Assembly (NCBI GenBank): GCA_964512625.1
Contig: CAZEKG010000003.1
Span: 22,953 to 86,952 of the forward strand
Length of the DNA stretch: 64,000 nucleotides
Direction of reading: 5' to 3'
Origin: an uncultured Gammaproteobacteria bacterium
GTDB taxonomy: Bacteria; Patescibacteriota; Patescibacteriia; 2-01-FULL-39-33
In this document: positions 1 through 34,243 of the stretch, piece after piece
Layout of the letters: each line of letters starts with the position of its first letter
Position numbering within the stretch: the first letter of the stretch is position 1
Program-made: the position numbers and the translations under genes
The notes under the pieces: generated by a model
Seen by the model: the letters and a program-made list of their open reading frames with translations, nothing else
What the model was told of the DNA's origin: nothing
Databases searched by the model: none

Positions 1-1385
1 ATAGAAGTATTAAAAGAAAAGCTAATATGAAACAACTAATAAAAAAAGTAACTCCCGGTTTTATTTTTCCTCTTTATCATAAATCCATGGCTATCTTGGC
101 TAATCTTTATTATAGACGGCCATCGGAAGAGTTGATTGTTATCGGCGTAACTGGAACTAACGGTAAGTCCTCGACTGTCAATCTTATTGCTCGGATATTA
201 GAGGAGGCCGGCTATAAAGTCGGGGCGACCGCTACCAATCTTTTTAAGATTGCCGATCGGGAATGGGTTAATGATAAAAAGATGACCATGCTTGGCCGGT
301 TTGCGCTCCAAGGCTTATTAAGAAAAATGGTTAAGGCTGGTTGCGCTTACGCGGTTATTGAAACTTCCTCTCAAGGCGTTGAGCAGTTCCGCCATTTAGG
401 TATTCATTATGACGCTTGCGTCTTTACTAATCTTACTCCCGAGCATATCGAGGCTCATGGCGGGTTTGAGAATTATAAAAAAGCGAAACTGAAATTATTC
501 AAGCATTTAGAGAAGCTGTCTAACAAGTCTTTTAGAAAAAAATTAATTCCTAAAGCGATTATTGTTAATGGCGACGACGAGCATGCTAAAGATTTTTTGG
601 ATTTCAGGGTTGACAAGAAGATAGCTTATTCAGTTACTAGTTATCAGTTACCAGTTACTAGTGGATTACAAAAAATCTCGGCGGAAAATATTGAATACGG
701 CGTAAGCGGAATCAGCTTTGAAGTTAATGATGTGAAATTCAATATTCATCTTTTCGGGCAATTTAATATTTATAACGCCTTAGCGGCAATTACGACAGCA
801 ATTTCCCAGGGTATCAACTTAGAGACTTGCAAAACGGCGCTGGAGAAAGTTAAAGGCGTTCCGGGCAGGATGGAATTTATTGAGGAGGGTTCCGGCGATC
901 AGGCTTTTACAGTCGTTGTTGATTATGGTTATGAACCGGAAGGTTTAAGGCAGGTTTTTAAAACTATAAAAGATCATAAATTGGTTTTAGAGAATGGAAG
1001 AATAATCCATGTCTTCGGTTCCTGCGGCGGCGGCCGGGATGTTTCGCGCCGGCCGATAATGGGTAAGTTATCAGCTGAAAATGCCGATATCTGTATTGTA
1101 GCTAATGAAGACCCTTATGATGATGATCCATTGGAAATTATCGAACAGGTGGCGAAGGGCGCCGAGGAAGCCGGAAAAATCCTTAATGAAAACTTATTTA
1201 AGATTATGGATCGGCGCGAAGCGATTAACTTCGCAATCAGTCTAGCTAAGCCAGGAGATTTAGTCCTTTTGACAGGCAAGGGTAATGAGCAAGTTATTTG
1301 CGTTGCTAACGATCAGAAAATAAAATGGGATGAGCGGGAAGTGGCGAGAGAAGAATTAAGAAAAATAAAAACCCTTACTCGGTAA
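1..1385 (+). CDS. murE: Mur ligase family protein (MurE-like UDP-MurNAc-tripeptide synthetase); reading frame open to window start, probably 5' partial
   Basis: GVTGTNGKSST P-loop, ETSSQG, FTNLTPEHIEAHG and NEDPYDDDP motifs are typical of Mur ligases. The P-loop lies only ~42 aa after the first in-window Met, which suggests the N-terminal domain starts upstream of the window. Confidence 0.7.
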   Translation, partial: RSIKRKANMKQLIKKVTPGFIFPLYHKSMAILANLYYRRPSEELIVIGVTGTNGKSSTVNLIARILEEAGYKVGATATNLFKIADREWVNDKKMTMLGRFALQGLLRKMVKAGCAYAVIETSSQGVEQFRHLGIHYDACVFTNLTPEHIEAHGGFENYKKAKLKLFKHLEKLSNKSFRKKLIPKAIIVNGDDEHAKDFLDFRVDKKIAYSVTSYQLPVTSGLQKISAENIEYGVSGISFEVNDVKFNIHLFGQFNIYNALAAITTAISQGINLETCKTALEKVKGVPGRMEFIEEGSGDQAFTVVVDYGYEPEGLRQVFKTIKDHKLVLENGRIIHVFGSCGGGRDVSRRPIMGKLSAENADICIVANEDPYDDDPLEIIEQVAKGAEEAGKILNENLFKIMDRREAINFAISLAKPGDLVLLTGKGNEQVICVANDQKIKWDEREVAREELRKIKTLTR

Positions 1386-1394
1386 GGGTCGGGA

Positions 1395-1937
1395 TTAGAC
1401 TCGGATTTTTCTCGGGTCTATTTGGAGATTCTCAGCATTGATCAGTTCGCTGATTTTCGACAGCGCTCTCGCGATGCCGCCAAAGTTAAGATATGATTCC
1501 ACACTGTCGCTAACGCCGGCGATGAGATTCCCGAGTTGATGGCACTCAGTAATCCTCTTCTGAGGGTCTTGATCGTCAAGGAAGCCGAGCGTTTTAGCTT
1601 CCGCTCTTTCCTCTTCCAAGATGGTCTCCTCCATGAAGTCTTCGGCGACTTCTGAGGCTTCTTGGAAATAGGCGGACTTGCTTAGTCGATCGTACATCCT
1701 TAGCTCCTGATCACGAAGCGCTCGGACGATCTTTTTGTTCAGGCCTAGCTTTTCCAGTTTGTCGATGGCTCGATGGAGCTGGTATAAGTCGATGGTCAGG
1801 TGACAGACGATATCGTAACTGTTTAGCCATTCGTAGATGATTTTATTCACAGGGCAATCTCCTAAGTTAAGGATGATGCGGTAATTGGTTGAAGGTACTC
1901 TAAATCTAAACTTACCCAGAGAATGTAATAATGTCAA
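1395..1937 (-). CDS. hypothetical protein on a GC-rich wedge between murE and rlmH
   Basis: Intact 180-aa ORF with clearly higher GC than its flanks. It has <=10 nt to the neighbouring genes on both sides, so its promoter would have to lie inside rlmH. It has no recognisable domain (weak HD-like LHRAID). Confidence 0.35.
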   Translation of the reverse strand: MTLLHSLGKFRFRVPSTNYRIILNLGDCPVNKIIYEWLNSYDIVCHLTIDLYQLHRAIDKLEKLGLNKKIVRALRDQELRMYDRLSKSAYFQEASEVAEDFMEETILEEERAEAKTLGFLDDQDPQKRITECHQLGNLIAGVSDSVESYLNFGGIARALSKISELINAENLQIDPRKIRV

Positions 1938-7649: not shown

Positions 7650-7670
7650 TTTAAAATAAAAAACGGCTGA

Positions 7671-8357
7671 TTAGGCCGTTGGGTTTTTCGGAATCTGGAC
7701 TAGGGGAGGCGCTTGGATGAAAGCAAGTCCGAGGCTTATCTCGTCATAATTCGGATCGTCGGTGACTTCCATTAAGAAAGGAATATCCTTCGGTAGGGTA
7801 AAGTCGCTCGCCGCTTTTTCGTTTTCGAAATCGGCGCGGACGATCCAAAGCGCCTGCTTGTCTTCTAAAAGAAACTTGTCGAGGAAAAGGCCACCCGGCA
7901 ATATCCAGCGCACTCTGGTTAAAGCTTTAGCGCCCTCCTTGAGAGGATAGATATCCGCTTCTCTTGATAAGTCCTCGTAGAAACTCTTTTCCTTGATCCG
8001 GAGGAAGACTTGATTGCCACTAACCGATTCGATTAGGCCGAAGACTAGTCCCTCGACCTGTTTCAGGTCTTTAAGGCTGGCGGTTAGCGGAACCGGGAGG
8101 TCGCTTTGCTGGCAGACGGCTTTAAGGAAGCTGTCAGATATCGGAATCTCGACGGTCTCAACCTTCGGGTTGAGGTATTGGGTAGGCCGTCTTTTTACGG
8201 CCAAAAACCAATTATCGTTGTAGCGCCTCATCTCCAGCTTGTCTAGTTTTTCTTGCTCATAGGCATAGAGATAGACTGAGAGCCTAGCTATCTCCCGTTG
8301 TTTTAACTCTTCGGCTGTTTCACTATCAATACGAAAACTTCTTGTAAATCTTATCAT
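7671..8357 (-). CDS. hypothetical protein
   Basis: ORF trimmed to the ATG at 8357 (MIRFTRSF...). No recognisable motif. Confidence 0.45.
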   Translation of the reverse strand: MIRFTRSFRIDSETAEELKQREIARLSVYLYAYEQEKLDKLEMRRYNDNWFLAVKRRPTQYLNPKVETVEIPISDSFLKAVCQQSDLPVPLTASLKDLKQVEGLVFGLIESVSGNQVFLRIKEKSFYEDLSREADIYPLKEGAKALTRVRWILPGGLFLDKFLLEDKQALWIVRADFENEKAASDFTLPKDIPFLMEVTDDPNYDEISLGLAFIQAPPLVQIPKNPTA

Positions 8358-8456
8358 AGCCTCTTTTTCTCCTTGGTTAGAGGTCGAACGGTAAAGGTGC
8401 GTAAAAGACATTATATTAATAACAAAATAATCCCTAAATGTCAACTTCGGCTTGGA

Positions 8457-8485
8457 TTGACTGGCCAGCCTCATTATGGTAAGAT
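8457..8485 (+). promoter_or_regulatory. candidate promoter TTGACT-N17-TAAGAT with ~210-nt leader for rny
   Basis: -35 perfect, -10 4/6; inside a divergent intergenic region. Confidence 0.4.
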
Positions 8486-8697
8486 AAAGGCACATTAATA
8501 ATAAACAAACAAAGAGGAATTGGGACGGGAAAGATCGGGCTTGCCTTTTTGGAACGGAAAATAGACTTAAAATTGTGATTATATCTTCTCTATTTTATCT
8601 AAATTTAGGTAAATTTACTTTAACTCTTCAAGCTTAGCTTGTTTGGAGGTTTTTTGTTTGTCCGATCGCTCAAGCCTCTTTGGTAGAGGAAAAATAT

Positions 8698-10227
8698 ATG
8701 GATACGATACTGCTAGTTTTTGCAGCCGGGACTATTTTCCTGGTTTTTGGTGTTTTTTTAGGTTATTTAGCGAGAAAACAGTGGGCAACTAATCGTCAAG
8801 GTACGGTTGAGTCCACGATTGAAAAAATGTTGGCGGAAGCCAAAGCGAAGCAAAAGGAGATTCTTTTAGTCGCTCAAGAAAAATCCTTAAAGTTTCTTGA
8901 AGATGCTAAAGAGGAAGCTAAGCAATTAAGAAAAGAGACTGAGGAGGCAAAAAGAAGGCTGGAAAAGCGGGAATCGCTTTTTGATCAAAAATTGCTTGAT
9001 TTGGAAAATAAGAAACAGGAACTTATTGATAAGGGCGAGCGTATTAATAAGATGAAGGAGGAAATTGCCGCTATTAGGGAAGAGCAATTTGCCAAGTTAG
9101 AAAAAATTGCCGCCTTGACTAAGCCGGAAGCGGAAAAGATCTTAATGGATAATGTCGAGCGATCAATTTCCGAGAACTTGGTTCACAGGATCAATAAATT
9201 AGAAAACGAGGCTTCTGAGGAACTAGAAAAGAAAAGCAAGGAATTATTATCGACAGTTATCGAGCGCTGCGCTTCTTCGCATGCTCAGGAAACAACTTCT
9301 TCAGTTGTCGATCTTCCAAGTGATGAAATGAAAGGCAGGATTATCGGCCGAGAGGGTAGGAATATTAGGACGATCGAGCAATTGACCGGCGTCGAGATCA
9401 TTATTGATGATACGCCTAACGCCATTACTCTTTCTTCCTTCAGCCCGATTAGAAGACAAGTTGCTAAGAAAGCGATTGAGAAGCTTATTTTTGACGGAAG
9501 AATCCATCCGGCGAGAATCGAAGAAACAATTAACGAAGCGAAAAAAGAAATCGCTTTAGATATTAAGAAGGCTGGTGAAGCGGCAGTTTACGAACTTGGT
9601 ATTGCTGGGCTTGATCCTAAGTTGGTCCAAATCATTGGTCGCTTGAAATATCGAACTAGTTATGGTCAGAACATTTTAAACCATTCAATTGAGGTCGCTC
9701 ATCTTTCAACTTTATTAGCGGAAGAATTGGGGGCTAATATTGATGTAGTGAAAAAAGCCGGCTTACTTCATGACATTGGCAAGGCTGTTGACCATGAAAT
9801 CCAAGGCACTCATCCGGAAATTGGCCGTGATATCGCTAAGAAATTCGGTTTAAGCGAAGAGATTATCCTGCCGATCGTCGCTCATCATGAAGATCATCCG
9901 GGAAGCCTTGAGGCGGTTATCGTTAAGATCGCTGATGCTATTTCAGGCGCTAGGCCGGGAGCGAGAAAAGATTCTTATGAAAATTATTTACAGCGCTTAA
10001 GTGAGTTAGAAAGAATTGCTAAGACTTTCGACGGAGTTGATAAAGTTTATGCCATTCAAGCCGGAAGAGAAGTTCGAGTCTTTGTTAACCCTGATGGCGT
10101 TGATGATTTAGGTTCGATTAAATTAGCTAAGGCGGTAGCAGAAAAAATAGAATCAGAATTGAAATATCCGGGAGAAATTAAAGTTAATGTTATTCGAGAA
10201 AAGCGTGTTGTCGAATACGCTAGATAA
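8698..10227 (+). CDS. rny: ribonuclease Y
   Basis: N-terminal TM helix, coiled-coil, KH domain (GRIIGREGRNIRTIEQLTGV) and HD domain (LLHDIGKAVDHE...HHEDHPGS). ATG at 8698 preceded by GAGG; a TTG at 8680 is also possible. Confidence 0.9.
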   Translation: MDTILLVFAAGTIFLVFGVFLGYLARKQWATNRQGTVESTIEKMLAEAKAKQKEILLVAQEKSLKFLEDAKEEAKQLRKETEEAKRRLEKRESLFDQKLLDLENKKQELIDKGERINKMKEEIAAIREEQFAKLEKIAALTKPEAEKILMDNVERSISENLVHRINKLENEASEELEKKSKELLSTVIERCASSHAQETTSSVVDLPSDEMKGRIIGREGRNIRTIEQLTGVEIIIDDTPNAITLSSFSPIRRQVAKKAIEKLIFDGRIHPARIEETINEAKKEIALDIKKAGEAAVYELGIAGLDPKLVQIIGRLKYRTSYGQNILNHSIEVAHLSTLLAEELGANIDVVKKAGLLHDIGKAVDHEIQGTHPEIGRDIAKKFGLSEEIILPIVAHHEDHPGSLEAVIVKIADAISGARPGARKDSYENYLQRLSELERIAKTFDGVDKVYAIQAGREVRVFVNPDGVDDLGSIKLAKAVAEKIESELKYPGEIKVNVIREKRVVEYAR

Positions 10228-10235
10228 TTTAGTAT

Positions 10236-11033
10236 ATGATGAAGATTATTTTTCTTTCCGATATTGTTGGGAAGATAGGCCGGCAAGCAGTCATTAAACA
10301 ATTGCCGAAATTAAAAAAAGAATTCCAAGCTGACCTAGTTATCGCTAATGTCGAAAACTTAGCTCACGGGATGGGCTTTACTCATAAGACTTTAGCGGAA
10401 ATATTTTCGGCCGGGGTTGATATTTGTACTTCCGGCAATCACGCTTGGGAGAAAGGCGGTACGGATGATATCTTAGATGATCCGGAAACGAAAGTGATCA
10501 GGCCGGCCAATTATTCTTCTAAAAAATCCGGTAGTGGTTGGCAGGAAATTACGGTTGGCCAAAATAAGCTAATCGTGGTAAACTTATTGGGTAAGGTATT
10601 TATTGACGAAGAAGTTGCTTGTCCGTTTAAAACTCTTGAGAAAATATTAGCTAAATTTAAAGATCTTCCTGTTGTAGTCGATTTTCATGCGGAAGCTACT
10701 TCTGAGAAGGCGGCTTTGGCTAATTACTTCGATGGCCGGATTTCGGCTGTTATTGGAACTCATACCCATGTCCAAACTTCCGATGAGCGAATTTTAGAGG
10801 AAGGAACAGGATTTATAACGGATGCGGGCATGATCGGTTATTATGATTCCGTTATTGGGGCAAGAAAAGATCAAGTTTTTAATTTATTTCTTAATAAGGG
10901 CATAAGCTCGAAAAAGCATGATTTGCCTGATTCCGGCAAAGCCTTATTCAATGGAGTTTACTTGGAAATAAATCCAAAAACGAAAAAGACGGTTAAGATA
11001 GAAAGAATTAATAAAATCATAGAAATCAAATAA
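10236..11033 (+). CDS. ymdB: YmdB-family metallophosphoesterase (2',3'-cyclic-nucleotide phosphodiesterase)
   Basis: MKIIFLSDIVGKIGR...NVENLAHGMGFT...TSGNHAWEKGG is the TIGR00282-like signature; rny-ymdB synteny as in Bacillus. Confidence 0.85.
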   Translation: MMKIIFLSDIVGKIGRQAVIKQLPKLKKEFQADLVIANVENLAHGMGFTHKTLAEIFSAGVDICTSGNHAWEKGGTDDILDDPETKVIRPANYSSKKSGSGWQEITVGQNKLIVVNLLGKVFIDEEVACPFKTLEKILAKFKDLPVVVDFHAEATSEKAALANYFDGRISAVIGTHTHVQTSDERILEEGTGFITDAGMIGYYDSVIGARKDQVFNLFLNKGISSKKHDLPDSGKALFNGVYLEINPKTKKTVKIERINKIIEIK

Positions 11034-11068
11034 TTATATAGTGCAGCAAGATAATAACCATTAACTAT

Positions 11069-11353
11069 ATGAACAAAGCTGAACTTGCCGACAAGATCGC
11101 CCAAAAAGTCGGCATCTCTAAGGCGCAAGCTGAGGAAGCTTTAAACGCCTTTACTCAAATCACGACCGAAACCATGAAGGCCGGGAGTGAGGTAACCTTG
11201 ACCGGGTTCGGCACTTTTTCCGCCAGAGCCAGGAAAGGCAGAGAGGGAATCAATCCTCGCAATACCAGCGAGAAGATCGTTATTCCAACGGTCGTAGTTG
11301 CTAAATTCAAAGCCGGTAAGAATCTTAAGGATGCTTTGAAGAAAAAAGACTAA
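11069..11353 (+). CDS. hup: DNA-binding protein HU
   Basis: MNKAELADKIAQK...GFGTFSARARKGREGINPRNTSEKIVIP matches the HU/IHF fold signature. Confidence 0.9.
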   Translation: MNKAELADKIAQKVGISKAQAEEALNAFTQITTETMKAGSEVTLTGFGTFSARARKGREGINPRNTSEKIVIPTVVVAKFKAGKNLKDALKKKD

Positions 11354-11362
11354 ATATTAAAT

Positions 11363-11401
11363 AATCCCGCTTTCTTAGTAACAAGAAAGCGGGATTTTTT
11401 T
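11363..11401 (+). terminator. rho-independent terminator of hup
   Basis: AATCCCGCTTTCTT...AAGAAAGCGGGATT hairpin followed by a T-run. Confidence 0.8.
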
Positions 11402-11420
11402 ATCATATTAAAATTAAAAG

Positions 11421-11444
11421 GCTCAAGTCGGTTGACTTGAGCCT
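11421..11444 (-). terminator. terminator hairpin for GC-rich ORFan 1
   Basis: GGCTCAAGTC-GGTT-GACTTGAGCC followed (minus strand) by a T-rich run. Confidence 0.55.
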
Positions 11445-11451
11445 TGTGTTT

Positions 11452-12105
11452 TCAGTTGCGGAGCATTTCCAGCTCCGCGAGAAAGGTTTCGGGAATGAAG
11501 GGGATGTCCTCTTCGTGGCGATGGGCCTTTGCCCAAAGTTCCGCGAACTCCGGATGATCGAGAAGATAATCTTTCTCCTCCAGCTTCATAACGAAGGGGT
11601 AGCCGTGAGGCATATTGTCGCCTCCGATGTGCTCTTTTAGACTTTGCCCCGCAATTGTCCTTCTGTACAGGACGTCGATTTCCCAGCTCCCGCGACCGTA
11701 GCAGCCGGGGAAAGGATTTTTGCTTTCGCCGACAACGCATCCAAGGTAGAAAGTTGCTTCGGAGCAGAGGCTGAACTTGACCTGCGAGGGATTGCAGATT
11801 ACCCATTCATCCTCTTTGAAGAAATCAATCGGCCTGAGAAACGGGAAGAGCGGCTTTTCTTCGGCCGTCTCCTTGATTTCGAGAAGGTATCTAATGACCT
11901 GTTCGAGATGAGCCTTCTCCATCCGCCAGTCTTCAGGAACCCAGCCTTTACATCCGGATATCTTTCGGCCAATAATCTTTGCCTTTGACCTCCAGTGACG
12001 GATGACTGTTCTGAGGTTTTCTTTCCCCCAAAACTCTAATTCGGCGATGTCATCCGCCTTCATAAAGGACCACGTTATCGGAATTAGTTCTGTTGTTAAA
12101 ATCAT
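11452..12105 (-). CDS. hypothetical protein (GC-rich ORFan cassette 1)
   Basis: ~57% GC in a sample 60-mer. ATG at 12105 with AGGAGG RBS 7 nt upstream, own consensus promoter and terminator. No recognisable domain. Confidence 0.55.
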   Translation of the reverse strand: MILTTELIPITWSFMKADDIAELEFWGKENLRTVIRHWRSKAKIIGRKISGCKGWVPEDWRMEKAHLEQVIRYLLEIKETAEEKPLFPFLRPIDFFKEDEWVICNPSQVKFSLCSEATFYLGCVVGESKNPFPGCYGRGSWEIDVLYRRTIAGQSLKEHIGGDNMPHGYPFVMKLEEKDYLLDHPEFAELWAKAHRHEEDIPFIPETFLAELEMLRN

Positions 12106-12274
12106 CACAGATCCTCCTGTTGCGGCGACGGTTTCTTTACAAACTCGCTTTAGCCGCGAAGACCTCTCTTTTGCAATCCCAACGCAGGATTACAGCCGGT
12201 TAACAGCGGATTGATTCAAATTACTTTGAGCCACTCAGCTGTTAATCGGTTAATTTAAAAGAACTTTACTTATG

Positions 12275-12303
12275 ATAATAGCAGTTTTGTTGTTTTTTGT
12301 CAA
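12275..12303 (-). promoter_or_regulatory. consensus promoter TTGACA-N17-TATTAT driving ORFan 1 through a ~150-nt leader
   Basis: Reverse complement of 12298-12303 is TTGACA, exact 17-nt spacer, reverse complement of 12275-12280 is TATTAT. Confidence 0.6.
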
Positions 12304-12490
12304 GGAGTAGGGGGGGCGCATAAATAAAATAATCCGCTGAAGAGTTGGGTATTTCCTCTCTCGATTGGCGCCGGAATGCGCCAATCTCGCTCGTCCTGGG
12401 TCAGCGTCGAATGACTCCCTTTGGTCGCATCCGCCGACACTCGCTTATTCGCAAAATTTTCCAATTTTGCTCATAGCTCGTTTCTGACCC

Positions 12491-12536
12491 GCGCACAAAT
12501 AAAAAATACCCCTGAGGGTATTTTTTATTTGTGCGC
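12491..12536. repeat. 46-nt perfect palindrome abutting the tRNA-Arg 3' end (probable bidirectional terminator)
   Basis: GCGCACAAATAAAAAATACCC-CTGA-GGGTATTTTTTATTTGTGCGC; its last 5 nt overlap the tRNA-Arg acceptor 3' strand. Confidence 0.6.
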
Positions 12537-12605
12537 CCAGCAGGATTCGAACCCACAACCTTCTGGTCCGAAGCCAGACGCTCTATCCAGCTGAGCTATA
12601 GGCGC
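12532..12605 (-). tRNA. tRNA-Arg (UCG)
   Basis: Acceptor GCGCCTA/TGGGCGC, anticodon stem TCTGG/CCAGA with loop CTTCGGA, T-loop TTCGAAT, discriminator A. Confidence 0.8.
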
Positions 12606-12625
12606 ATTTTTTCATTTATTTTTTG

Positions 12626-12698
12626 TGCCCTCAGTAGGATTCGAACCTACGACCGTTTGCTTAAGAGGCAACTGCTCTACCGACTGAGCTATGGACGC
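12626..12698 (-). tRNA. tRNA-Lys (CUU), acceptor stem with two mismatches
   Basis: D-arm GCTC-AGTCGGTA-GAGC, anticodon stem GTTGC/GCAAA with loop CTCTTAA, T-arm GTAGG-TTCGAAT-CCTAC. Acceptor GCGTCCA vs TGAGGGC gives G3-G70 and C5-A68 mispairs. Confidence 0.55.
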
Positions 12699-12708
12699 TA
12701 ATTTTACA

Positions 12709-12731
12709 AAGTCGCCTAGAAAAGGCGACTT
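12709..12731 (-). terminator. terminator of pilT
   Basis: GTCGCCTAGAAAAGGCGAC hairpin followed by T-run on the minus strand. Confidence 0.55.
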
Positions 12732-12767
12732 TGATATATTAGCAATTTTTTTAAAAAATATCAAGAC

Positions 12768-13793
12768 CTAGGCCGTCAAATTAAGATTATAATCAAGGAC
12801 TTCTTTAGTAATCTTATTATCCTTATATAACTGCATGAGCGAATTATCCATAGTAATCATACCTTCTCTAGCTCCAGTTTGAATAGCGGTTTTGATTTGA
12901 GTAACTTTGTTTTCCCTAATCAAATTGGAGATGGCTGGATTATTGATTAAGATTTCTCTAGCCCCGACTCGTCCGCCGTCTTTTCCTGGTACTAATCTTT
13001 GGGACATGACGGCTTGAAGGGTGATGGAAATCTGCATCCTGATTTGATTTTGCTGATGAGGAGGGAAAGTATCAATAATACGATCAATGGTTTGAGAGGC
13101 GCTATAAGTATGTAAAGTCGCAAAGACTAAATGGCCTGTTTCAGCGAGGGTGATTGTTGTAGCAATTGTTTCTAAGTTTCTCATTTCTCCGACCATGATG
13201 ATATTAGGGTCTTGGCGAAGGACATGGACTAAGCCGTTTTGGAAAGTCAACATATCATAGCCGAGCTGTCTTTGGCGGATGATACTTTTTTCCGGCTTGA
13301 AGATAAATTCAATCGGATCTTCAAGAGTCATGATATTGACTCGGCGATTTTGATTGATGTAATTAATCATGGCGGCCAGAGTCGTTGATTTACCGCAACC
13401 GGTCGGACCAGTAACAAGAATCAAGCCTCGATCCAGTTTACATAGATCATAAGCGACTTGAGGCATGCCGATTTCTTCCATGGTCGGGATAATCGAGGGG
13501 ATTATTCTCGCAGCTAGTCCGATATTACCTTTTTCCCAAAATAAATTGATACGGAAGCGGTAGTTCTCGATTTCATGGGCGAAGTCCAGTTCTTTTTCAA
13601 TTAAGAATTTTTTAAACTGTAATTCGCTTAAGACGGCTTTGACGACATTCTCAATATCTTTCGGAGAAAAGACCTTGTTATCAAGCTCGACCAATTCGCC
13701 GTCAACTCTAACGAAAGCCGGCAAGCCGGCAATTAAATGAAAGTCGGAGGCTCTCATTTTTATGGCCCTTTCGAAAAGGCTGTCTAAATTCAT
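12768..13793 (-). CDS. pilT: type IV pilus retraction ATPase PilT
   Basis: Walker A GPTGCGKSTT, LILVTG, PilT/PilU family length (341 aa) and motif order. Confidence 0.85.
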   Translation of the reverse strand: MNLDSLFERAIKMRASDFHLIAGLPAFVRVDGELVELDNKVFSPKDIENVVKAVLSELQFKKFLIEKELDFAHEIENYRFRINLFWEKGNIGLAARIIPSIIPTMEEIGMPQVAYDLCKLDRGLILVTGPTGCGKSTTLAAMINYINQNRRVNIMTLEDPIEFIFKPEKSIIRQRQLGYDMLTFQNGLVHVLRQDPNIIMVGEMRNLETIATTITLAETGHLVFATLHTYSASQTIDRIIDTFPPHQQNQIRMQISITLQAVMSQRLVPGKDGGRVGAREILINNPAISNLIRENKVTQIKTAIQTGAREGMITMDNSLMQLYKDNKITKEVLDYNLNLTA

Positions 13794-13849
13794 ATGATAT
13801 TTTTTAAATTAAGACTGTTTTATGCCCCGAAAATTCCTAAACTTTTAAG

Positions 13850-14554
13850 TTATTTATTCCAATTCTTCTTTTCTAAACCGTTCTTAGCGGCTTCCGTTTG
13901 GGCTTCTTGCTTACTTAATCCTTCGCCGGTCGCGATTAGTTCGTTTTCAAGATAGACGCCGACTTTGAAAGTCTTGGCGTGATCGGGACCGATGGAGCTG
14001 ATTACTTTATAATTAGGAGTGATACCTAAAGCTTCCTGGGCTTTTTCCTGGAAGAGACTTTTAGCGTCAATGTATGATTTATTCATTAAGATTTCTTCGA
14101 GCTCGGAAACGATATGCTTCATGATAAAATCCTTGGCTTTAGCGATACCTAAATCAAGATAAATAGCGCCGATGATCGCTTCAATGGAGTTGGCGAGAAT
14201 GTATTGCCTAGCCTTGGAATTGCCGTCCTTGGATTCGCCCTTGCTTAAATAAAGGAAAGGTTCGACGCCGATTTCCTGAGCGATCTTTGCTAGGTTCGAG
14301 CCGTTAACTAAGCTAGCGCGCCAATTAGTCAATTCACCTTCAGGGTTCGGGTATTTTTTATAAAGATGCTCGGTTACGATCAGTTCTAAAACGGCATCGC
14401 CTAAAAATTCCAGTCTTTCGTTATGATCTAATTTGAATTCAGGATGTTCGTTGAGGTAAGAACGATGGACAACGGCTTGAGTTAAGAGGGTAGGGTTATT
14501 AAAATTAACGCCAATCTTTTTTTCTAATTGAGAGATGTCGGAAATGCGATTCAT
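13850..14554 (-). CDS. rnc: ribonuclease III
   Basis: ERLEFLGDAVLELIV signature plus C-terminal dsRBD. Confidence 0.9.
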   Translation of the reverse strand: MNRISDISQLEKKIGVNFNNPTLLTQAVVHRSYLNEHPEFKLDHNERLEFLGDAVLELIVTEHLYKKYPNPEGELTNWRASLVNGSNLAKIAQEIGVEPFLYLSKGESKDGNSKARQYILANSIEAIIGAIYLDLGIAKAKDFIMKHIVSELEEILMNKSYIDAKSLFQEKAQEALGITPNYKVISSIGPDHAKTFKVGVYLENELIATGEGLSKQEAQTEAAKNGLEKKNWNK

Positions 14555-14556
14555 GA

Positions 14557-15036
14557 TTATTCAGCTTTTATTTCTTCAGTGACGACGGTCGTCTGCTTTT
14601 CGGCGATTCTTTTATCAATTTCTTTTTCACCGCCGTCTTTATAAATAGCGCCTAAAACGCCGTTGACGAACTTGCCCGATGATTCGCCGCCAAAAGTTTT
14701 TGCCAATTCGATTGATTCGTTTATAGCAACTTTAGCCGGGATATTCTCATCAAAACGGAGCTCGAAGGTTCCGAGTCTTAAGATATTGCGGTCAATAGTT
14801 GTTATTTGGTCCAAAGGCCATTCCGGAGCGAATTTTACGATTAACTGGTCGATAGATTCTTTATTTTCCAAGACGCCGTTAATCAGATGCTCGATAAAAC
14901 CGGCATCGTCGAAGTCGGGCGCGAATTGCTCTTTATCCCGCTTCATGATTTCGATGGCATTGTCCACTTGACCGTTAAAATCCCATTGATAAAGAGCTTG
15001 GACGACGATAGTTCTCGCAAGATGTCGATTAGACAT
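14557..15036 (-). CDS. nusB: transcription antitermination factor NusB
   Basis: [14 protein letters not shown]...; 159 aa in the NusB family. Confidence 0.85.
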
Positions 15037-15114
15037 AGTTATTGTGGATTTAGAGTTGCTTCGTTGATAAGCCAGTCATCATGAATGACAACTGACATGG
15101 CAAAAAAACAATTT

Positions 15115-15381
15115 TTATTTAGTGGCTTTCTTTTTCTTAGTAGCGGCTTTTTCTTTTGTTGCCGTTTTTCTAGCCTGTTCTTTTTGTTTTAAGGTTTTAG
15201 CCTTGGTTTTAATCTCGATGACTTGGCGGCCCTTGTAAGTACCGCAGAAATCACAAGCTTTATGAGGAGCAACCGGTTTTTGGCATTTTGAGCATGTATT
15301 CAAAACTGCTTTCTTAAGGGCAAAATGGGAGGCTCTTCTTTTAGCAGAGGACTTCGTTCTCTTTTGGCTGGGTAAACCCAT
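15115..15381 (-). CDS. rpmF: 50S ribosomal protein L32 with Lys-rich C-terminal extension
   Basis: KRRTSKS..RRASHFALK and CSKC...CDFCGYYKGRQV zinc-ribbon are typical of bL32; a Lys-rich tail follows. Confidence 0.8.
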   Translation of the reverse strand: MGLPSQKRTKSSAKRRASHFALKKAVLNTCSKCQKPVAPHKACDFCGTYKGRQVIEIKTKAKTLKQKEQARKTATKEKAATKKKKATK

Positions 15382-15451
15382 ATCACTTATGAATTATTTT
15401 TTAAGACAATTGAGATGGAAAGTAAAAATAGTTCCTTTTCAATCTTTCTGT

Positions 15452-15480
15452 ATTCTAACAGGTTTTTGCTCGTTTGGCAA
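15452..15480 (-). promoter_or_regulatory. promoter TTGCCA-N17-TAGAAT for rpmF
   Basis: Reverse complement of 15475-15480 is TTGCCA, 17-nt spacer, reverse complement of 15452-15457 is TAGAAT. Confidence 0.45.
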
Positions 15481-15523
15481 GGGAAAAGTGGGGTGGGCTA
15501 TTTTCTGTGGTTAATAAAAATAA

Positions 15524-15548
15524 AAAGGATTGTCTTGCGACAATCCTT
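15524..15548 (-). terminator. terminator of GC-rich ORFan 2
   Basis: AAGGATTGTC-TTGCG-ACAATCCTT followed by a T-run on the minus strand. Confidence 0.55.
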
Positions 15549-15562
15549 GGTTTGAATCAGCT

Positions 15563-16789
15563 CTAGGCTTTCTTCTTGATCCTTATCATGTGTCCCTCGG
15601 GCACGGCATCTTCGGGAAGCAGGTTGCCGCCGACGAAATACTTTCGTACCTTGACGGTTCGAGGCGCGTCGGGGTTGTGGCCCTCGCCTGGCTTCCGTCT
15701 CTTGTGAGCCGAACGGAAGTGCGGCCGGATCAGCCCCGCAATATTGCCTGGACGGCCGGCTTGGCGGGCTTGAGCGAAGGCGTGCCTGGTTTCCGGCGAA
15801 AGGTTGGCGATACTGGTAATTTTACAGACCTCGGCCGGATCAGTTATATAGCCGAAATTCTTCGGTCTTTGAGCCGTGGCTGACTCAAGGAGGTGAAGCG
15901 TCCGGTTTCTTTCCCAAGGAGTCTTTAAGGGAGATCCCTCTGGTAAGACTTCGAGGTACATGCAGAGACTGGAGAGATACTTGAGAGCCAGGTCGAAAGC
16001 TTCGAACGGCAAGTCGCTGTTCGCAAAGTCTTCGTCGTATAAAATTTCCTGGACGGTTTTTGAAATCGCCGATTCCAGGAATCTTTCCTGCTCGAAGACG
16101 ATGACGGGGGCTAGGCCTTTGAGCCGTGCCGGCAACTTGATTATCTTTTCCTTCGCTTCTCTTCCGAGCTCGATCATTTTGCGGTTCTTACCGCTTTTTT
16201 TCGCCGCTTGGAAGTTCACCTCCAAGTCCTTGGCCTGCTTCTCAAGAAAAGAGCATCTCTCGGTCAGCTCTTTCGAAATCAAACGAACCATGATTAGGCT
16301 TTGTTCGACTTTGCAGTTGCGGGCCTGAGAAATTAGGATGCAATCATATTGTCCGGCAATCGGCACATCGAGCAAGAGTGCGAAGCCTTCAAATGGGAAC
16401 GATATGTCGGACCAGGTATGATCCTTTTGGTCCATGGCCTCGAAGAGACATTGCAAATCTTCCCCGACGCAATACATCTTTCTTGATATTCCCCAGCAAG
16501 TGAGGCAAACCGGCGTCAATACGAAATATTGCAGGATCTCCTTCATATCATCGTCGAAGACCATGAAAGGCAGGCGATCATCCCTGATGGTGAAATTCGG
16601 ATTAGTGGCTGCTTCATGGCCGACTTTGATTAGGAAGCGACGAAGCTGTTCGAAAGTCTCAAGCGGCCTGGAATAGCCTTTCTTTGCGCCTTGATTCTGA
16701 GCGAACTCGTCGCCGACCCGACAAATTCGGCAAGCTGCTTCCCAAGTTCTTAACAACTCATCGATTCGCTGTCTGACATGATAGCTCAT
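15563..16789 (-). CDS. hypothetical protein (GC-rich ORFan cassette 2), 408 aa with basic C-terminal tail
   Basis: High GC relative to flanks; ATG at 16789 with GGGAGGGAAG RBS; own terminator. No recognisable domain; C-terminus is KRRKPGEGHNPDAPRTVKVRKYFVGGN. Confidence 0.55.
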   Translation of the reverse strand: MSYHVRQRIDELLRTWEAACRICRVGDEFAQNQGAKKGYSRPLETFEQLRRFLIKVGHEAATNPNFTIRDDRLPFMVFDDDMKEILQYFVLTPVCLTCWGISRKMYCVGEDLQCLFEAMDQKDHTWSDISFPFEGFALLLDVPIAGQYDCILISQARNCKVEQSLIMVRLISKELTERCSFLEKQAKDLEVNFQAAKKSGKNRKMIELGREAKEKIIKLPARLKGLAPVIVFEQERFLESAISKTVQEILYDEDFANSDLPFEAFDLALKYLSSLCMYLEVLPEGSPLKTPWERNRTLHLLESATAQRPKNFGYITDPAEVCKITSIANLSPETRHAFAQARQAGRPGNIAGLIRPHFRSAHKRRKPGEGHNPDAPRTVKVRKYFVGGNLLPEDAVPEGHMIRIKKKA

Positions 16790-16942
16790 CCTTCCCTCCC
16801 CCGAGTTATAGACAATATTTTAATCACCGGCCAACCCGGCAATCATTTCTAAGGTGCGACAAATCAAAGTACAACTTTTCAGGATAACAAAATAAACTCT
16901 TTCAGTCAAGAGTTTATTTTGATGGCCGGTTAAAAGGCCGAG

Positions 16943-17926
16943 TTATTTTTCTTTCAGGGTTTTTAAGAAGGCTCCTAATTTTTCGGGCAGTTCACTAGCA
17001 TAGGTTTTTTCTTCTCCGGAGGGGTCAATAAAGGTTAATTGCCGAGCATGGAGAAAAATACGCTCTGGCAGGCCATTTTTGGCCTTAGAAGGCCCATACA
17101 GACGGTCAGAAACGACAGGATGGCCGTAAGCGAGCATATGGACGCGGATTTGATGGGTTCGGCCGGTCAGGATTTGGACCTCTAAAAGGGTATAGTTTTT
17201 TAATCTTTTCAGGACATGGAAAATCGTTAAAGCCGGCTTGGCCTGAGGATTCATTTCCATTTTACTTATCGCCGCAAAAAGTCCCGGCTTGGTTTTCGAG
17301 CGGGAGATCGGGAAGTTTATTTCGCCTTCGCCGGCAATAACTTCGCCTTCGACTAAAGTCCAATATTTTTTAATGATGGTTTTAGTTTTGAAAAGACGTT
17401 TGAAGTAATCGAACGCTTCCTGATTTCTAGGAATAAGGATTAACCCGGAGACATCCTTATCAAGTCGATGGACAATAGCTGGACGAGAAGGATCTTCGCC
17501 GATTTTTCTCAGTTCCGGATATTTTTCTAACAGCCAATCGACTAAAGTATTGGTTTCATTCTTATCGGTCGGATGGACGAGTAGTCCGGAGGGCTTGTTA
17601 AGGATCAAGTAATCTTTTTCTTCGGCGATTATTTCCGGAATAAGGGTAACGGTATTTTTCCTCGCCGTTTTTTTTGATTTTTTCTGATTCTCGGCGTTTG
17701 ATTTACTTTTTGTTTCTTCAGACTTCTCGATTATTATGATCTCATCGCCGTTTTTTAAAAAGCGGTGGACGCTCGCTTCCTTATTATTGACCTTAACGAG
17801 TCCGTCGAGAATCATTTTCTTGATTTGGGAGCGGGTAATTTCCGGTAAGTTTTCGGAAAGGAAAATATCCAGCCTCATTTTTCCTTCGGCTTCCTGATTG
17901 TCGTAGACAAATTTATTTTTTTGCAT
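16943..17926 (-). CDS. rluD: RluA-family 23S rRNA pseudouridine synthase (RluD-like) with S4 domain
   Basis: N-terminal S4 RNA-binding domain; HRLDKDVSGLILI catalytic motif of the RluA family. Confidence 0.85.
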   Translation of the reverse strand: MQKNKFVYDNQEAEGKMRLDIFLSENLPEITRSQIKKMILDGLVKVNNKEASVHRFLKNGDEIIIIEKSEETKSKSNAENQKKSKKTARKNTVTLIPEIIAEEKDYLILNKPSGLLVHPTDKNETNTLVDWLLEKYPELRKIGEDPSRPAIVHRLDKDVSGLILIPRNQEAFDYFKRLFKTKTIIKKYWTLVEGEVIAGEGEINFPISRSKTKPGLFAAISKMEMNPQAKPALTIFHVLKRLKNYTLLEVQILTGRTHQIRVHMLAYGHPVVSDRLYGPSKAKNGLPERIFLHARQLTFIDPSGEEKTYASELPEKLGAFLKTLKEK

Positions 17927-17930
17927 ATTT

Positions 17931-19451
17931 TTAGTTTTCAGGCTTTGTATTTTTATGTAACAGCCGTTTTCTTTCTTCTCCGTAATATTTAAGATCGGGA
18001 TTCATTTCTTTTAGAGCTTCATTTTCCAAGCCGTTAAGCTCAATCGCCTTAGCGCTTAAATATTCCTTATCATTTTTCTTTGGATCCTCGAGTACCTCGC
18101 CTAAGAGGGCATTAAGGATTAAACCGACCCGCGGTCCTGGAATGATTTTTAAGAGCTCCATCAGTTCGGTACCGTTTAGTTTTAGCATCTTCGGCGCAAT
18201 CGGATCGAGTTGGACTTCCTTTAAGCGTCTTTCTAACTCGATAAGTTTCCAGGGCTTGGCTTTAGGCCGGCCCATACCGAGTCGGTCGCAAATTCTTAGG
18301 TTGATAAAGTCCTCGATATTCTCTTTCCCTAATCGGCTAAGCAATCTTCGGACTCCGGCGTCTGATACGGTATCCATAGCGTAATAAAACATATGATAAC
18401 GGACAAGATGATAAACGGAATTGATAAGCTCATTAGAGTAGCCCAATCTTTTTAAGATATGTTTAGTCATTTTGGCGCCGACCTGGTCATGGTTATGGAA
18501 AGAAGAATCGACACCTTCGCCCTCTTTTGTTTTCGGTTTGCCGATATCATGAAAGAGCGCCGCTAATCTTATTTCCAATTTATAGTCTCGAGCGGCTCCT
18601 GCGCCTAACGCCCGGACGCTATGTTCATATACATCATAAATGTGGGCTTTGTTTTGGGTTATTCCTGCGGCCGAATCAAGTTCCGGAATCAGGATTTTTA
18701 ATAAGCCGATTTCTTTCATTAGCCTTATACCTTCTTCCGCTTTAGGGGAGAGGATAATCTTAGTCAGTTCTTCATTTATTCTTTCAGCCGGGATAGTCGC
18801 GATCTTTTCCGCTTTCTCATTTATAGTTTTTAGAGTATAGGCTTCGATTAAAAAATCCAATTGGCAAGAGAAGCGGATGGCGCGCAGCATGCGAGTATAG
18901 TCTTCTTGAAATCTTTTTTCCGGCTCGCCGATGGCTTTGATGATTTTATTTTTTAAGTCGCTTAAGCCGTTAAAGGGATCGATCAATTTTTTATTCTTTA
19001 AGTCCCAAGCTAAAGCGTTTATAGTAAAGTCGCGACGACCAAGATCTTCTTCGATCGGCAGGTCTTTATCACTTTGGATTTCAAAGTCGCGATAGCCGCC
19101 GCTCATCCCGGCGTTCTCGGTTCGGGGCAGGGCGATATCGAAGGCTTCGAATCTTTCTTCTTTGTTTAACAGGCAATCAGGCATGAATTTAAAAACGCCG
19201 AAGCTTTTGCCGACTAAATTGACTTGGCCTTTACCGGTTAGGAATTTTTCTAAGGTTTTGGGTTCGACTTTGGAGATGACGAAATCGTAGTCTTTAGTCG
19301 GCCTCTCAATAATCAGGTCACGGACAGCGCCGCCGACGAGGTAGATGTTTGCTTCAGGAAATTCTTTAATCAGATCAAAAATAAAACCGAACTCAGCGGA
19401 GCCCTGAATTGATTTTTGCCAAGCGATTAATTTTTTTTCGGCGTTTTTCAT
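17931..19451 (-). CDS. cca: CCA tRNA nucleotidyltransferase / poly(A) polymerase family protein with HD domain
   Basis: GGAVRDLIIERPTKDYDFV head domain, LFHDIGKPKT HD motif; 506 aa. Confidence 0.8.
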   Translation of the reverse strand: MKNAEKKLIAWQKSIQGSAEFGFIFDLIKEFPEANIYLVGGAVRDLIIERPTKDYDFVISKVEPKTLEKFLTGKGQVNLVGKSFGVFKFMPDCLLNKEERFEAFDIALPRTENAGMSGGYRDFEIQSDKDLPIEEDLGRRDFTINALAWDLKNKKLIDPFNGLSDLKNKIIKAIGEPEKRFQEDYTRMLRAIRFSCQLDFLIEAYTLKTINEKAEKIATIPAERINEELTKIILSPKAEEGIRLMKEIGLLKILIPELDSAAGITQNKAHIYDVYEHSVRALGAGAARDYKLEIRLAALFHDIGKPKTKEGEGVDSSFHNHDQVGAKMTKHILKRLGYSNELINSVYHLVRYHMFYYAMDTVSDAGVRRLLSRLGKENIEDFINLRICDRLGMGRPKAKPWKLIELERRLKEVQLDPIAPKMLKLNGTELMELLKIIPGPRVGLILNALLGEVLEDPKKNDKEYLSAKAIELNGLENEALKEMNPDLKYYGEERKRLLHKNTKPEN

Positions 19452-19545
19452 CTTATATCAAGTTTATCATATTATTAGCTGATTTGTTATTATAGCTTAA
19501 AAATCGGGAAAAATCAAGGATAGGGGAAAAGAAAGAAGAAAAATA

Positions 19546-19566
19546 AAACCGCCACTTTTAGTGGCG
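19546..19566 (-). terminator. terminator of GC-rich ORFan 3
   Basis: CCGCCAC-TTTTA-GTGGCGG hairpin overlapping the stop codon, T-run downstream on the minus strand. Confidence 0.5.
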
Positions 19567-20028
19567 GGAGTTTGCTTGGCCCCTTCGGTCAGCGAATTTA
19601 GCGAGGCCGAGTGTCTGAAGTGCAGACCTAAGCCATCCAGGACGAGGCTCTGGCGGCGAAGTATCGTGTTTACCAACCTCTTTTTCCAGTTGTTCTTCGC
19701 GGACTTGTCGCCTCTCTTCCTCTTCGAGTTCGTAGAGATGATCTTGGTCAATCGCGACGAACCAAACCTTGTCTCTTCGCCTCATGAAGAGGGCAGCCTT
19801 CACCTTCGGAAAGCCGCAGTACGACACAAAACCGTAGATCACCCTGGCATTACCTGAGCGGAGATTTTTAATGCAGAACCCCCGATCGACAAGGAAGTCG
19901 TAAGGTCCGGCGCCGTCGCAGGTTCCGACCGAAAGAACTTGACCTTTCTCGGCCGCAAGGAATCGGCTATAGACCGAGGGATTGAGAGAGTTAAGCACTC
20001 TCGAAGTCGAAGTGTAGTTATTTATCAT
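19558..20028 (-). CDS. hypothetical protein (GC-rich ORFan cassette 3)
   Basis: ATG at 20028 with AGGAGA RBS 6 nt upstream; high GC; 185-nt leader from a consensus promoter; lies immediately downstream of the tRNA-Val 3' end. Confidence 0.55.
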   Translation of the reverse strand: MINNYTSTSRVLNSLNPSVYSRFLAAEKGQVLSVGTCDGAGPYDFLVDRGFCIKNLRSGNARVIYGFVSYCGFPKVKAALFMRRRDKVWFVAIDQDHLYELEEEERRQVREEQLEKEVGKHDTSPPEPRPGWLRSALQTLGLAKFADRRGQANSRH

Positions 20029-20210
20029 GATAGGTCTCCTGAGAGCCGCTTGCCGCTTGTGCAGCCATGGCTCGTTGCGGGTTGTTCGTTACGGGATTCT
20101 GGTGCGTTGGTTCGGACTTAGTCTTCTTTGATTAATTTTTATTAAGGATCAAAGTTCTTCGCGGGCTAATATTTATAGCCCATTAAAGGTGTCTTAATTA
20201 AAGACTCCTT

Positions 20211-20239
20211 ATTCTAGTATACTATTATGGATGTGTCAA
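20211..20239 (-). promoter_or_regulatory. promoter TTGACA-N17-TAGAAT for ORFan 3
   Basis: Reverse complement of 20234-20239 is TTGACA, 17-nt spacer, reverse complement of 20211-20216 is TAGAAT. Confidence 0.55.
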
Positions 20240-20257
20240 GATTTTTAGTTTGTTAAA

Positions 20258-20373: not shown

Positions 20374-20433
20374 TTAAATTTATAGACCAAAGAAATTATA
20401 TGCTTAATAAGGTCTTTTGTCAATCGATCCAAG

Positions 20434-20506
20434 TAGGCCTGGGTGGAATTGAACCACCGACATCTACGTTATAAGCGTAGCGCTCTAACCCCTGAGCTAC
20501 AGGCCC
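20434..20506 (-). tRNA. tRNA with anticodon UAU (putative tRNA-Ile reading AUA)
   Basis: Perfect acceptor GGGCCTG/CAGGCCT, anticodon stem CTACG/CGTAG, loop CTTATAA giving anticodon UAU, T-arm GGTGG-TTCAATT-CCACC. Confidence 0.7.
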
Positions 20507-29801: not shown

Positions 29802-29880
29802 ATGTTTTCAACAATATCTTAGCATAAATAAGCCCCTAGGGGAAGAGGCTGGCCGGTAATCTTGCAACTTTTGGCCGATT

Positions 29881-29909
29881 TTGACAATTTATGCTTTTTA
29901 TAATATAAT
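29881..29909 (+). promoter_or_regulatory. consensus promoter TTGACA-N17-TATAAT for pflB
   Basis: Exact -35 and -10 hexamers with 17-nt spacer, ~110 nt upstream of pflB. Confidence 0.6.
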
Positions 29910-30020
29910 GAAGCAGTTACAATCGAATTTTAAGCTAAATCTCCGGCTTGGCGCTGCGGGATTTTAGTTTTACTTCTTGGCGGTGAAAATAGCCGATTAA
30001 TAACTTAAATTAATATAGAG

Positions 30021-32246: not shown

Positions 32247-32248
32247 TT

Positions 32249-32974: not shown

Positions 32975-33004
32975 AAATAATTAGATAAAAATGAAAAACG
33001 CAAA

Positions 33005-34228: not shown

Positions 34229-34243
34229 GCTTCGAACAAATAC

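Follow-up and report, generated by a model that had tools for sequence, protein, structure and literature searches.

Why does a bacterial chromosome of ~41% GC carry, scattered along it, short GC-rich patches that each resemble a complete transcription unit? The question is raised by positions 11420-12530 of a 64,000-nucleotide stretch of contig CAZEKG010000003.1 (GenBank assembly GCA_964512625.1, contig positions 22,953 to 86,952; hereafter the window), where one such patch lies next to tRNA genes, and it recurs at other patches in the window. An initial annotation, made from the sequence itself, described the patches as cassettes, most of them with one open reading frame (ORF) without relatives, or ORFan, and suggested recent acquisition from a high-GC donor. 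We consider it likely that they are a mixed set of moron-like single-gene islets, probably gained laterally by a Patescibacteria chromosome, the largest of which encodes a protein resembling AcrVA2 and FinQ.

The window is a segment of a bacterial chromosome, in which Pfam annotation recognized housekeeping genes for IF-2, RNase Y, ClpP, valyl-tRNA synthetase (ValRS), TyrRS, PNPase, S15, L32, NusB, and RNase III. Retrieval with ValRS placed the genome in the Patescibacteria, or candidate phyla radiation (CPR), which bears out an earlier guess that it was of the episymbiont type. The nearest genomes are metagenome-assembled genomes (MAGs) of Candidatus Buchananbacteria, with ValRS identities of at most 70%. 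Sampling of the lineage is thin: a set of 15 billion proteins contained no relative at 90% identity or more even for ValRS.

The compositional contrast is real but smaller than first described. Mean GC in the window is 40.7%, with a standard deviation (SD) of 0.048 among 400-bp windows. The patches, initially put at ~50 to 57% GC, are elevated, but 51 to 57% is reached only by peak 400-bp windows, and whole-patch averages span 45 to 52%: 46.4% for 1395-1937, 48.1% for 11452-12530, 51.6% for 15563-16800, 48.8% for 19558-20250, 51.0% for 33698-34228, 49.1% for 35535-35945, 45.3% for 42640-43136, 50.8% for 56367-56850, and 48.5% for 61540-61900. Nine runs exceeded the mean by more than 2 SD. Patches 1395-1937 and 42640-43136 were not among them, and the runs also took in a patch that had not been listed, 7671-8495, and the end of the window at 63551-63950. 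Patch 42640-43136 was not confirmed as a cassette because its ORF (42813-43136) has a GC content of 42% and no Shine-Dalgarno site. The stretch at 63551-63950 (~50% GC) is cut by the right edge of the window, and its sole ORF (63773-63994, minus strand) has position-specific GC like that of non-coding DNA.

Elevated GC goes with genes that lack a Pfam domain. Among 58 genes, a GC content of at least 0.46 was found in 8 of 15 without a domain versus 1 of 43 with one (Fisher P = 2.6e-5), the sole domain-bearing gene being HU. Codon usage shifts in the same way: the C-ending codon fraction (Y3) was 0.46 to 0.68 in seven of the eight cassette ORFs versus 0.31 ± 0.10 in the backbone, the exception being the 56.4-kb gene (0.38 to 0.39), and GC at third codon positions (GC3) was 0.51 to 0.61 in the cassettes versus a gene median of 0.456 window-wide. 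The shift is towards CTC, GTC, CAC, and GAC and away from TTA, and the encoded proteins contain an excess of Arg, Pro, Cys, and His and a deficit of Lys, Ile, and Asn. Both the base composition and the codon use of the cassettes differ from those of the surrounding genome.

Transcription and translation signals were predicted around most of these genes. The four promoters quoted initially were all found in place, the first two on the minus strand; they match the consensus at 11 of 12 (12303-12275), 11 of 12 (20239-20211), 12 of 12 (56367-56395), and 10 of 12 positions (33614-33642). A predicted promoter and terminator of their own thus frame single ORFs, the promoter being of consensus type in four cassettes and weaker in two (15563-16789 and 1395-1937); none was predicted for 7671-8495. 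A hairpin terminator was predicted behind all eight cassette ORFs (11445-11418, 15548-15525, 19567-19549, 34244-34267, 35513-35491, 56819-56848, 7680-7662, and 1390-1370), and Shine-Dalgarno sites lie 5 to 9 nt upstream of the start in six. The long GC-rich leaders first estimated at ~150, ~185, and ~55 nt are present and measure about 163, 177, and 55 nt. The proposal that most patches hold one ORF with a strong ribosome binding site (RBS) and a terminator therefore stands, the exceptions being 61540-61900, which is non-coding, and the unconfirmed 42640-43136. These predicted signals support a description of the patches as compositionally atypical, mostly self-contained transcription units. 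Phage "morons" and bacterial genomic islets each add one gene laterally, under a promoter and before a terminator of its own, and stand out in composition. The cassettes resemble them in being autonomous units that differ in composition from their flanks; unlike phage morons, they lie in a cellular chromosome outside any recognizable prophage. These cassettes exceed their host in GC, whereas bacterial ORFans and genes gained by transfer more commonly lean towards AT.

The focal cassette illustrates the arrangement. All of its parts are on the minus strand, downstream of genes for tRNA-Lys(CUU) (12625-12698) and tRNA-Arg(UCG) (12531-12605), both identified by ARAGORN and Rfam, the pair directly upstream of the cassette. 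The tRNA operon ends in a predicted terminator hairpin (12491-12536), a 100% complementary inverted repeat with perfect 21-nt arms, the first of which includes the 3' end of tRNA-Arg. On either side of a GC-rich non-coding spacer of ~150 nt (12316-12515) stands one copy of an imperfect 25-nt direct repeat (12316-12340 and 12491-12515, 80% identical). This repeat is a copy of the descending arm of the terminator and encloses the spacer, not the cassette. The stretch 12310-12498 folds with z = -2.7, and Rfam has no match for the spacer. The remnant of an att duplication, or the insertion of a small element, could account for repeat and spacer. There follow the predicted promoter TTGACA-N17-TATTAT (12275-12303), with a TG before its -10 element; a 5' leader (12106-12268) that folds better than all 200 shuffled versions (z = -3.5) and ends in AGGAGG 8 nt before the ATG at 12105; the gene itself (11452-12105; GC 50%, GC3 0.61, Y3 0.62), encoding a soluble, acidic protein of 217 amino acids (pI 5.5); and a terminator hairpin (11418-11445) with a 12-bp stem and a T-run.

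ORFan status was assessed by scans of Pfam, NCBIfam, PHROGs, and PADLOC, a word-indexed search over 5.8 billion proteins, and, for the largest cassette protein (408 aa), an exhaustive HMMER search over 1.84 billion representatives. For the 217-amino-acid (217-aa) protein, the word-indexed search returned the query alone, the four family collections and PDB sequences held no relative, and tblastn against phages and scans of metagenome and viral contigs gave no match. Its AlphaFold model, predicted from the single sequence, had a predicted local distance difference test (pLDDT) score of 41 and was unusable.

Synteny was compared with four fetched loci from relatives (L001, L002, L003, and L005), whose coverage extends to five cassettes and leaves those at 1.4, 7.7, and 56.4 kb outside it. 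All five testable cassettes are missing from the equivalent sites. The clearest case is the 408-aa cassette described below: L002 is collinear with the window over 12.5-29.8 kb, but its rluD-like and rpmF genes are 86 bp apart versus ~1.56 kb in the window, so that the cassette, in the manner of a moron or islet, is wedged between genes adjacent in L002. At the focal site, where the tRNA-Lys(CUU)/tRNA-Arg(UCG) pair lies downstream of a PilT-like ATPase gene, the tRNA order is reversed in L002 (L002 538-699), the closest syntenic relative, in which a different gene on the opposite strand comes next; the reversal implies a local rearrangement at this site. Filled here by a 156-aa cassette, the slot that separates tRNA-Val from the gene for the CCA-adding enzyme is occupied by a large serine recombinase in L001 and by a PBP gene with other genes in L002 and L005; in L003 it contains a heavy-metal ATPase island together with a gene of 53% GC that lacks a Pfam domain. 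This slot is behaving as an integration or replacement hotspot. A 7.3-kb block (~29.8-37.1 kb; ~29800-37125) that holds two further cassettes (176 and 136 aa) is absent from L001, L002, and L003. Its genes encode pyruvate formate-lyase with its radical-SAM activase, cyclopropane-fatty-acid synthase, a C39 peptidase, and a protein like Fe-hydrogenases, and it is probably a larger acquired metabolic island with the two GC-rich cassettes inside. The relatives have comparable genes of their own: of ten variable, GC-rich genes found in L002, L003, and L005, nine lack a Pfam domain and the other encodes a Cro/C1-type helix-turn-helix regulator.

The two cassettes directly downstream of tRNA genes recall tRNA-adjacent genomic islands, as do the variability of the tRNA-Val slot with its recombinase in L001 and an island in the window itself (43.2-55.5 kb) with a serine recombinase next to tRNA-His/tRNA-Arg. 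Unlike such islands, both tRNA-side cassettes lack an integrase and a clear att copy of the tRNA 3' end, and typical islands are far larger than the cassettes (~0.7-1.1 kb).

The largest cassette (15525-16909, minus strand) proved to be the most informative. It comprises a promoter-like sequence (16909-16881), the RBS GGGAGG, a coding sequence for 408 amino acids (15563-16789; GC 51%, GC3 0.61), and the terminator at 15548-15525, and lies between the rluD-like gene (16943-17926) and rpmF (15115-15381). Across 5.8 billion proteins, the word-indexed search brought back nothing beyond the query itself, and at least two proteins when it was run with the family alignment. Exhaustive HMMER over the representatives, by contrast, recovered 440 relatives (218 with E ≤ 1e-10), for the most part full-length proteins (~390 aa) with 27 to 34% identity to the query, the best at 34%. 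The 408-aa protein is therefore not an ORFan but a member of a family of at least 440, labeled AcrVA2-like. Because the word-indexed search missed this family, ORFan status is unproven for the seven other proteins.

Several lines of evidence connect this family with AcrVA2. The family members P0053, P0008, P0159, and P0011, and the genes of a tandem array in locus L024, carry the precomputed label PF26125 ("AcrVA2-like"), and phmmer searches from the 408-aa protein reached two of these full-length homologs, P0008 (E = 6.9e-31) and P0053 (E = 7e-19). Our Pfam scan was silent on the 408-aa protein and equally silent on P0053, itself recorded as PF26125, which suggests that the Pfam copy scanned lacks this model. 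The initial statement that the cassette proteins have no recognizable domain thus held as far as Pfam, NCBIfam, PHROGs, and PADLOC are concerned, which gave only subthreshold noise, but was wrong in substance for this one. An AlphaFold model built from the family alignment, which conserves HFRxGHWRRPPGxGxDPxAPKTVxVRP among its motifs, had a pLDDT of 84 and a predicted TM-score (pTM) of 0.80. In a fold search with this model, the top three PDB matches were AcrVA2 crystal structures (7CI1 and 7CI2 among the AcrVA2 structures), with probabilities of 0.97 to 0.99, and the next PDB match had an E value ~500-fold worse. The same fold was found in 12 phage proteins (probability 0.41 to 1.0, nine at 0.84 or higher), several of them from jumbo phages.

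AcrVA2 is reported to bind Cas12a at its nascent N-terminal peptide and to cause the Cas12a mRNA to be lost, with H286, R288, and H291 being essential; homologs such as FinQ are widespread on mobile elements, usually where Cas12a is absent (bioRxiv 10.1101/2022.11.29.518452). The C-terminal part of the 408-aa protein contains H357-F-R359-S-A-H362, an HxRxxH motif spaced identically, and in the family alignment H357 and R359 each reach a conservation of at least 90%; the correspondence of H357/R359/H362 to H286/R288/H291 is inferred, not aligned. Pfam annotation found no cas12a gene in the window, and tblastn of the 408-aa protein against plasmids and phages and scans of viral contigs were negative. 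The protein differs from AcrVA2 in being ~90 residues longer and without a detectable direct sequence match, and its gene is chromosomal, alone among housekeeping genes, with no recognizable mobile element. Together, these results show, as far as sequence and a modeled fold can, that the 408-aa protein belongs to an AcrVA2/FinQ-like family, the link running through intermediates, in sequence and in fold, and not through a direct match to a hidden Markov model (HMM). By hhalign, the focal 217-aa protein showed no relation to the AcrVA2-like family.

A comparable setting was found for P0159, annotated as a Patescibacteria MAG protein (MEK7562608.1). Its gene stands alone among those for GroEL/ES, UvrA, RNase J, and S6-SSB-S18 (loci L048 and L049), the same stand-alone arrangement as in the window, and has 46% GC in a 37% locus. 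Across 15 loci, regression of the GC3 of family members on that of their neighbors gave a slope of 0.52 (r = 0.71, P = 0.003). Family GC3 lies above that of the neighbors in low-GC hosts and below it in high-GC hosts, and the excess is greatest for the window copy (+0.18). This is the pattern expected of a mobile gene that has partly ameliorated.

Members of the family also occur in arrays, which are not described in bioRxiv 10.1101/2022.11.29.518452. In L024 (ENA ERZ28533575 NODE_3614), a tandem array of ~9-10 diverged AcrVA2-like paralogs occupies positions 8260-19483, with 53 to 58% GC versus 47% in the rest of the locus, and adjoins HTH_3-Peptidase_M78, DUF4411, and MOSC genes. On the P0011 contig, two AcrVA2-like copies lie in tandem among glycosyltransferase genes.

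These observations suggest how the patches may have arisen. The islets would have come in one by one out of a GC-richer pool of mobile genes, and their composition would not yet have drifted to that of the host. Some may have landed in tRNA-side slots, which would be integration or replacement hotspots of the lineage, and others between housekeeping genes. The 408-aa protein would work like AcrVA2, recognizing a specific target polypeptide, probably during translation, with loss of the target mRNA brought about via the conserved C-terminal HxRxxH region; the target may be a defense or mobile-element protein. The other small, soluble, mostly acidic proteins may be conflict-related cargo left by mobile elements. 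As a whole, this is ordinary lateral acquisition together with one informative family assignment. The initially proposed high-GC donor is partly upheld, since atypical composition and absence from relatives fit a higher-GC pool but no donor was found.

Several observations weigh against lateral gain of moron-like islets. For seven of the eight cassette proteins, homologs were not detected, and their mobile or conflict-related nature is therefore argued by analogy alone; for the ORFs at 19.6, 33.7, 35.5, and 56.4 kb the coding evidence itself is weak or ambiguous. None of the cassettes is bordered by a recombinase, a transposase, an att site, or a target-site duplication, and no donor or near-identical copy turned up for any of them. 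Because the nearest relatives share only ~70% ValRS identity, absence cannot distinguish gain from loss or date the event. For the AcrVA2-like protein, TM-scores of the model to AcrVA2 are just 0.3 to 0.4, PDB sequence searches gave the family no direct match to the AcrVA2 entry, and the gene is surrounded by housekeeping genes in the window, where neither a recombinase nor a phage gene is close by, as well as in L048.

It is conceivable, though in our judgment improbable, that Patescibacteria have domesticated AcrVA2-like proteins as silencers of their own, as single genes in the window and L048 and as arrays on the P0011 contig and in L024, with the other GC-rich islets being further conflict genes from the same pool. 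If this were true, the cell itself would possess a repertoire of polypeptide-specific mRNA silencers directed against phages and plasmids or even host functions, and arrays of two to ~ten diverged AcrVA2-like paralogs would be part of that repertoire, not a mobile-element tool. We give no more credence to an origin as native, fast-evolving, lineage-specific genes, whose GC would reflect amino acid composition or mRNA selection and whose quick turnover would explain their absence from relatives. The Arg, Pro, Cys, and His bias of the cassettes and their paucity of Lys, Ile, and Asn would fit such an origin, as would the occurrence of GC-rich genes without Pfam domains in relatives and the lack of mobility genes adjoining the cassettes. 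AcrVA2-like genes are, moreover, GC-richer than their surroundings in most low-GC genomes, partly owing to their Arg/Pro/Gly-rich conserved motif. However, the shift extends to synonymous sites, with Y3 at 0.54 to 0.68 in five cassettes, and family GC3 falls below that of the neighbors in high-GC hosts, which intrinsic composition does not predict. The 408-aa family is also patchy and occurs in phages. Lateral gain of single-gene islets remains the reading that we prefer.

A further explanation, which we regard as quite unlikely, is that some ORFs are spurious, arising from the scarcity of stop codons in GC-rich DNA, and that the patches are structured non-coding RNAs or decayed DNA. It draws on the four cassettes with doubtful coding frames. 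The 156-aa cassette downstream of tRNA-Val (19549-20239, minus strand) has a promoter at 20239-20211, a leader of ~177 nt, a coding sequence at 19558-20028, and a terminator at 19567-19549, but its coding score is weak and slightly negative (-0.05). In the 176-aa cassette (33614-34267, plus strand; promoter 33614-33642, AAGGAGG, coding sequence 33698-34228, terminator 34244-34267), the frame is ambiguous versus an antisense ORF (33971-34417), and in the 136-aa cassette (35491-36040, minus strand; promoter 36040-36012, coding sequence 35535-35945, bidirectional terminator 35491-35513), the antisense ORF scores about equally (0.08 versus 0.07). The 115-aa cassette (56367-56848, plus strand), with a perfect promoter at 56367-56395, an AAGGAGG-N5-TTG start at 56457, a stop at 56804, and a terminator at 56819-56848, also has a slightly negative score. 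A zinc ribbon had been noted in this protein; the motif is there, but as CPNC-N10-CPMC rather than with an N9 spacing, and zinc-ribbon matches in the Pfam, NCBIfam, PHROGs, and PADLOC scans were subthreshold only. Leaders and the focal spacer fold better than shuffled sequence. The 61540-61900 patch, initially listed alongside the gene cassettes as a non-coding segment, is indeed non-coding and not a gene cassette, with its own predicted promoter and a strong fold: a candidate non-coding RNA of ~440 nt (61457-61920, plus strand) upstream of a DksA-like gene, it has an extended -10 element TGCTATAAT (~61457-61465), a GC-rich body, and a T-run (61903-61920), and folds with z = -4.46 (0 of 100 shuffles as good), and the ORF it contains (61546-61854) has a negative coding score. 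Identification of this RNA as RNase P RNA or transfer-messenger RNA was rejected, neither Rfam nor ARAGORN supporting it.

Against spurious ORFs stand the Shine-Dalgarno sites before six starts. In the 151-, 228-, 217-, and 408-aa ORFs, the annotated frame scores best and GC at first codon positions exceeds that at second positions. The 408-aa ORF has its 440 homologs, and Rfam, at gathering as well as permissive thresholds, gave only tRNAs and chance matches and no family for any patch.

Direct capture of the cassettes from a high-GC bacterial host of an episymbiont, an idea also raised in the initial annotation, appears very unlikely. The genome is indeed CPR and the cassettes are GC-richer than the backbone, but no near-identical donor was found in the databases searched: two cassettes tested against 5.8 billion proteins had no close homolog there, and relatives of the 408-aa protein are at most 34% identical to it. 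One of these is annotated as Patescibacteria and sits in a housekeeping context, and several others are on low-GC contigs, some from 0.1- to 0.2-µm groundwater filtrates. A cassette GC of ~50% also falls inside the range of other Buchananbacteria loci (47% in L005, 50% in L020). One coherent cassette system, integron-like or a single mobile family, is largely refuted and hardly credible: the layout is alike from patch to patch (promoter, leader, strong RBS, one ORF, terminator), and integron cassettes too are small units with one gene each and no assigned function, but all-against-all BLASTP, comparison of leaders and flanks, and repeat searches were empty, as the initial inspection by eye had indicated, so the cassettes are not one system; leaders and flanks share just A/T-rich 9- to 14-mers of terminators, there are no common direct or inverted repeats, attC-like sites, or arrays and, among the Pfam matches, no IntI integrase, the scattered patches have their own promoters, and the AcrVA2-like family HMM matches only one ORF in the window.

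Two cassettes remain to be described. The previously missed GC-rich gene (7662-8495, minus strand; terminator 7680-7662; no consensus promoter found) is a 274-aa ORF at 7671-8495 with a likely start at ATG 8357, preceded by AAGGAG, which gives 228 aa. Its product has no family match in Pfam, NCBIfam, PHROGs, or PADLOC or by phage tblastn. A 30-residue match to viral contig L050 (33.5 bits) was treated as chance because it was seeded on an exact 8-mer across 2.9 million contigs, and a 21.5-bit PDB match to "CAG1" was likewise treated as chance. The modestly GC-rich gene (46%) at 1370-1937 (minus strand; terminator 1390-1370) is a 180-aa ORF (1395-1937) whose likely start is GTG 1850, preceded by TAGGAG, for a product of 151 aa; the neighboring ORF at 1885-2415 is a real SPOUT methyltransferase gene. 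Phage tblastn with the proteins of the other cassettes was negative, exact-product look-ups for the window proteins gave no record, and non-coding segments had only chance matches of 18 to 21 nt in the fetched loci.

The window also contains a classical integrated defense island (43170-55607). It encodes a full-length Avs4 STAND NTPase (1601 aa, with 2300 bits in PADLOC), a DpnII endonuclease with methyltransferases of the N4/N6 and Dam types, an HTH_17 excisionase-like protein, and several proteins without assigned roles (DUF5659, sigma-70 region-4-like), and its large serine recombinase gene (53761-55461) abuts tRNA-His and tRNA-Arg. The Avs4 and restriction-modification part has 30 to 35% GC, below the backbone, and foreign DNA in this window therefore deviates in both directions. 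Next to tRNA-Val(GAC), tRNA-Ile(UAU) (20433-20506) forms a pair that is kept in L001, L002, L003, and L005; it is an unusual route to AUA decoding without a lysidine-modified tRNA-Ile(CAU).

These results leave the present understanding of gene transfer unchanged. In thinly sampled lineages such as the CPR, ORFan calls hinge on search sensitivity: a word-indexed search returned the 408-aa query alone where HMMER found 440 relatives, and such negatives therefore do not establish ORFan status at identities of 35% or less. Acquired genes usually lean towards AT, but in this lineage the accessory genes have more GC than the core; in these small genomes, GC can therefore serve in practice to flag genes that are accessory and possibly involved in conflict. 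Within the library searched, no paper named AcrVA2 together with Patescibacteria. The AcrVA2/FinQ-like family, described as mobile-element cargo (bioRxiv 10.1101/2022.11.29.518452), appears here inside Patescibacteria chromosomes, in housekeeping contexts.

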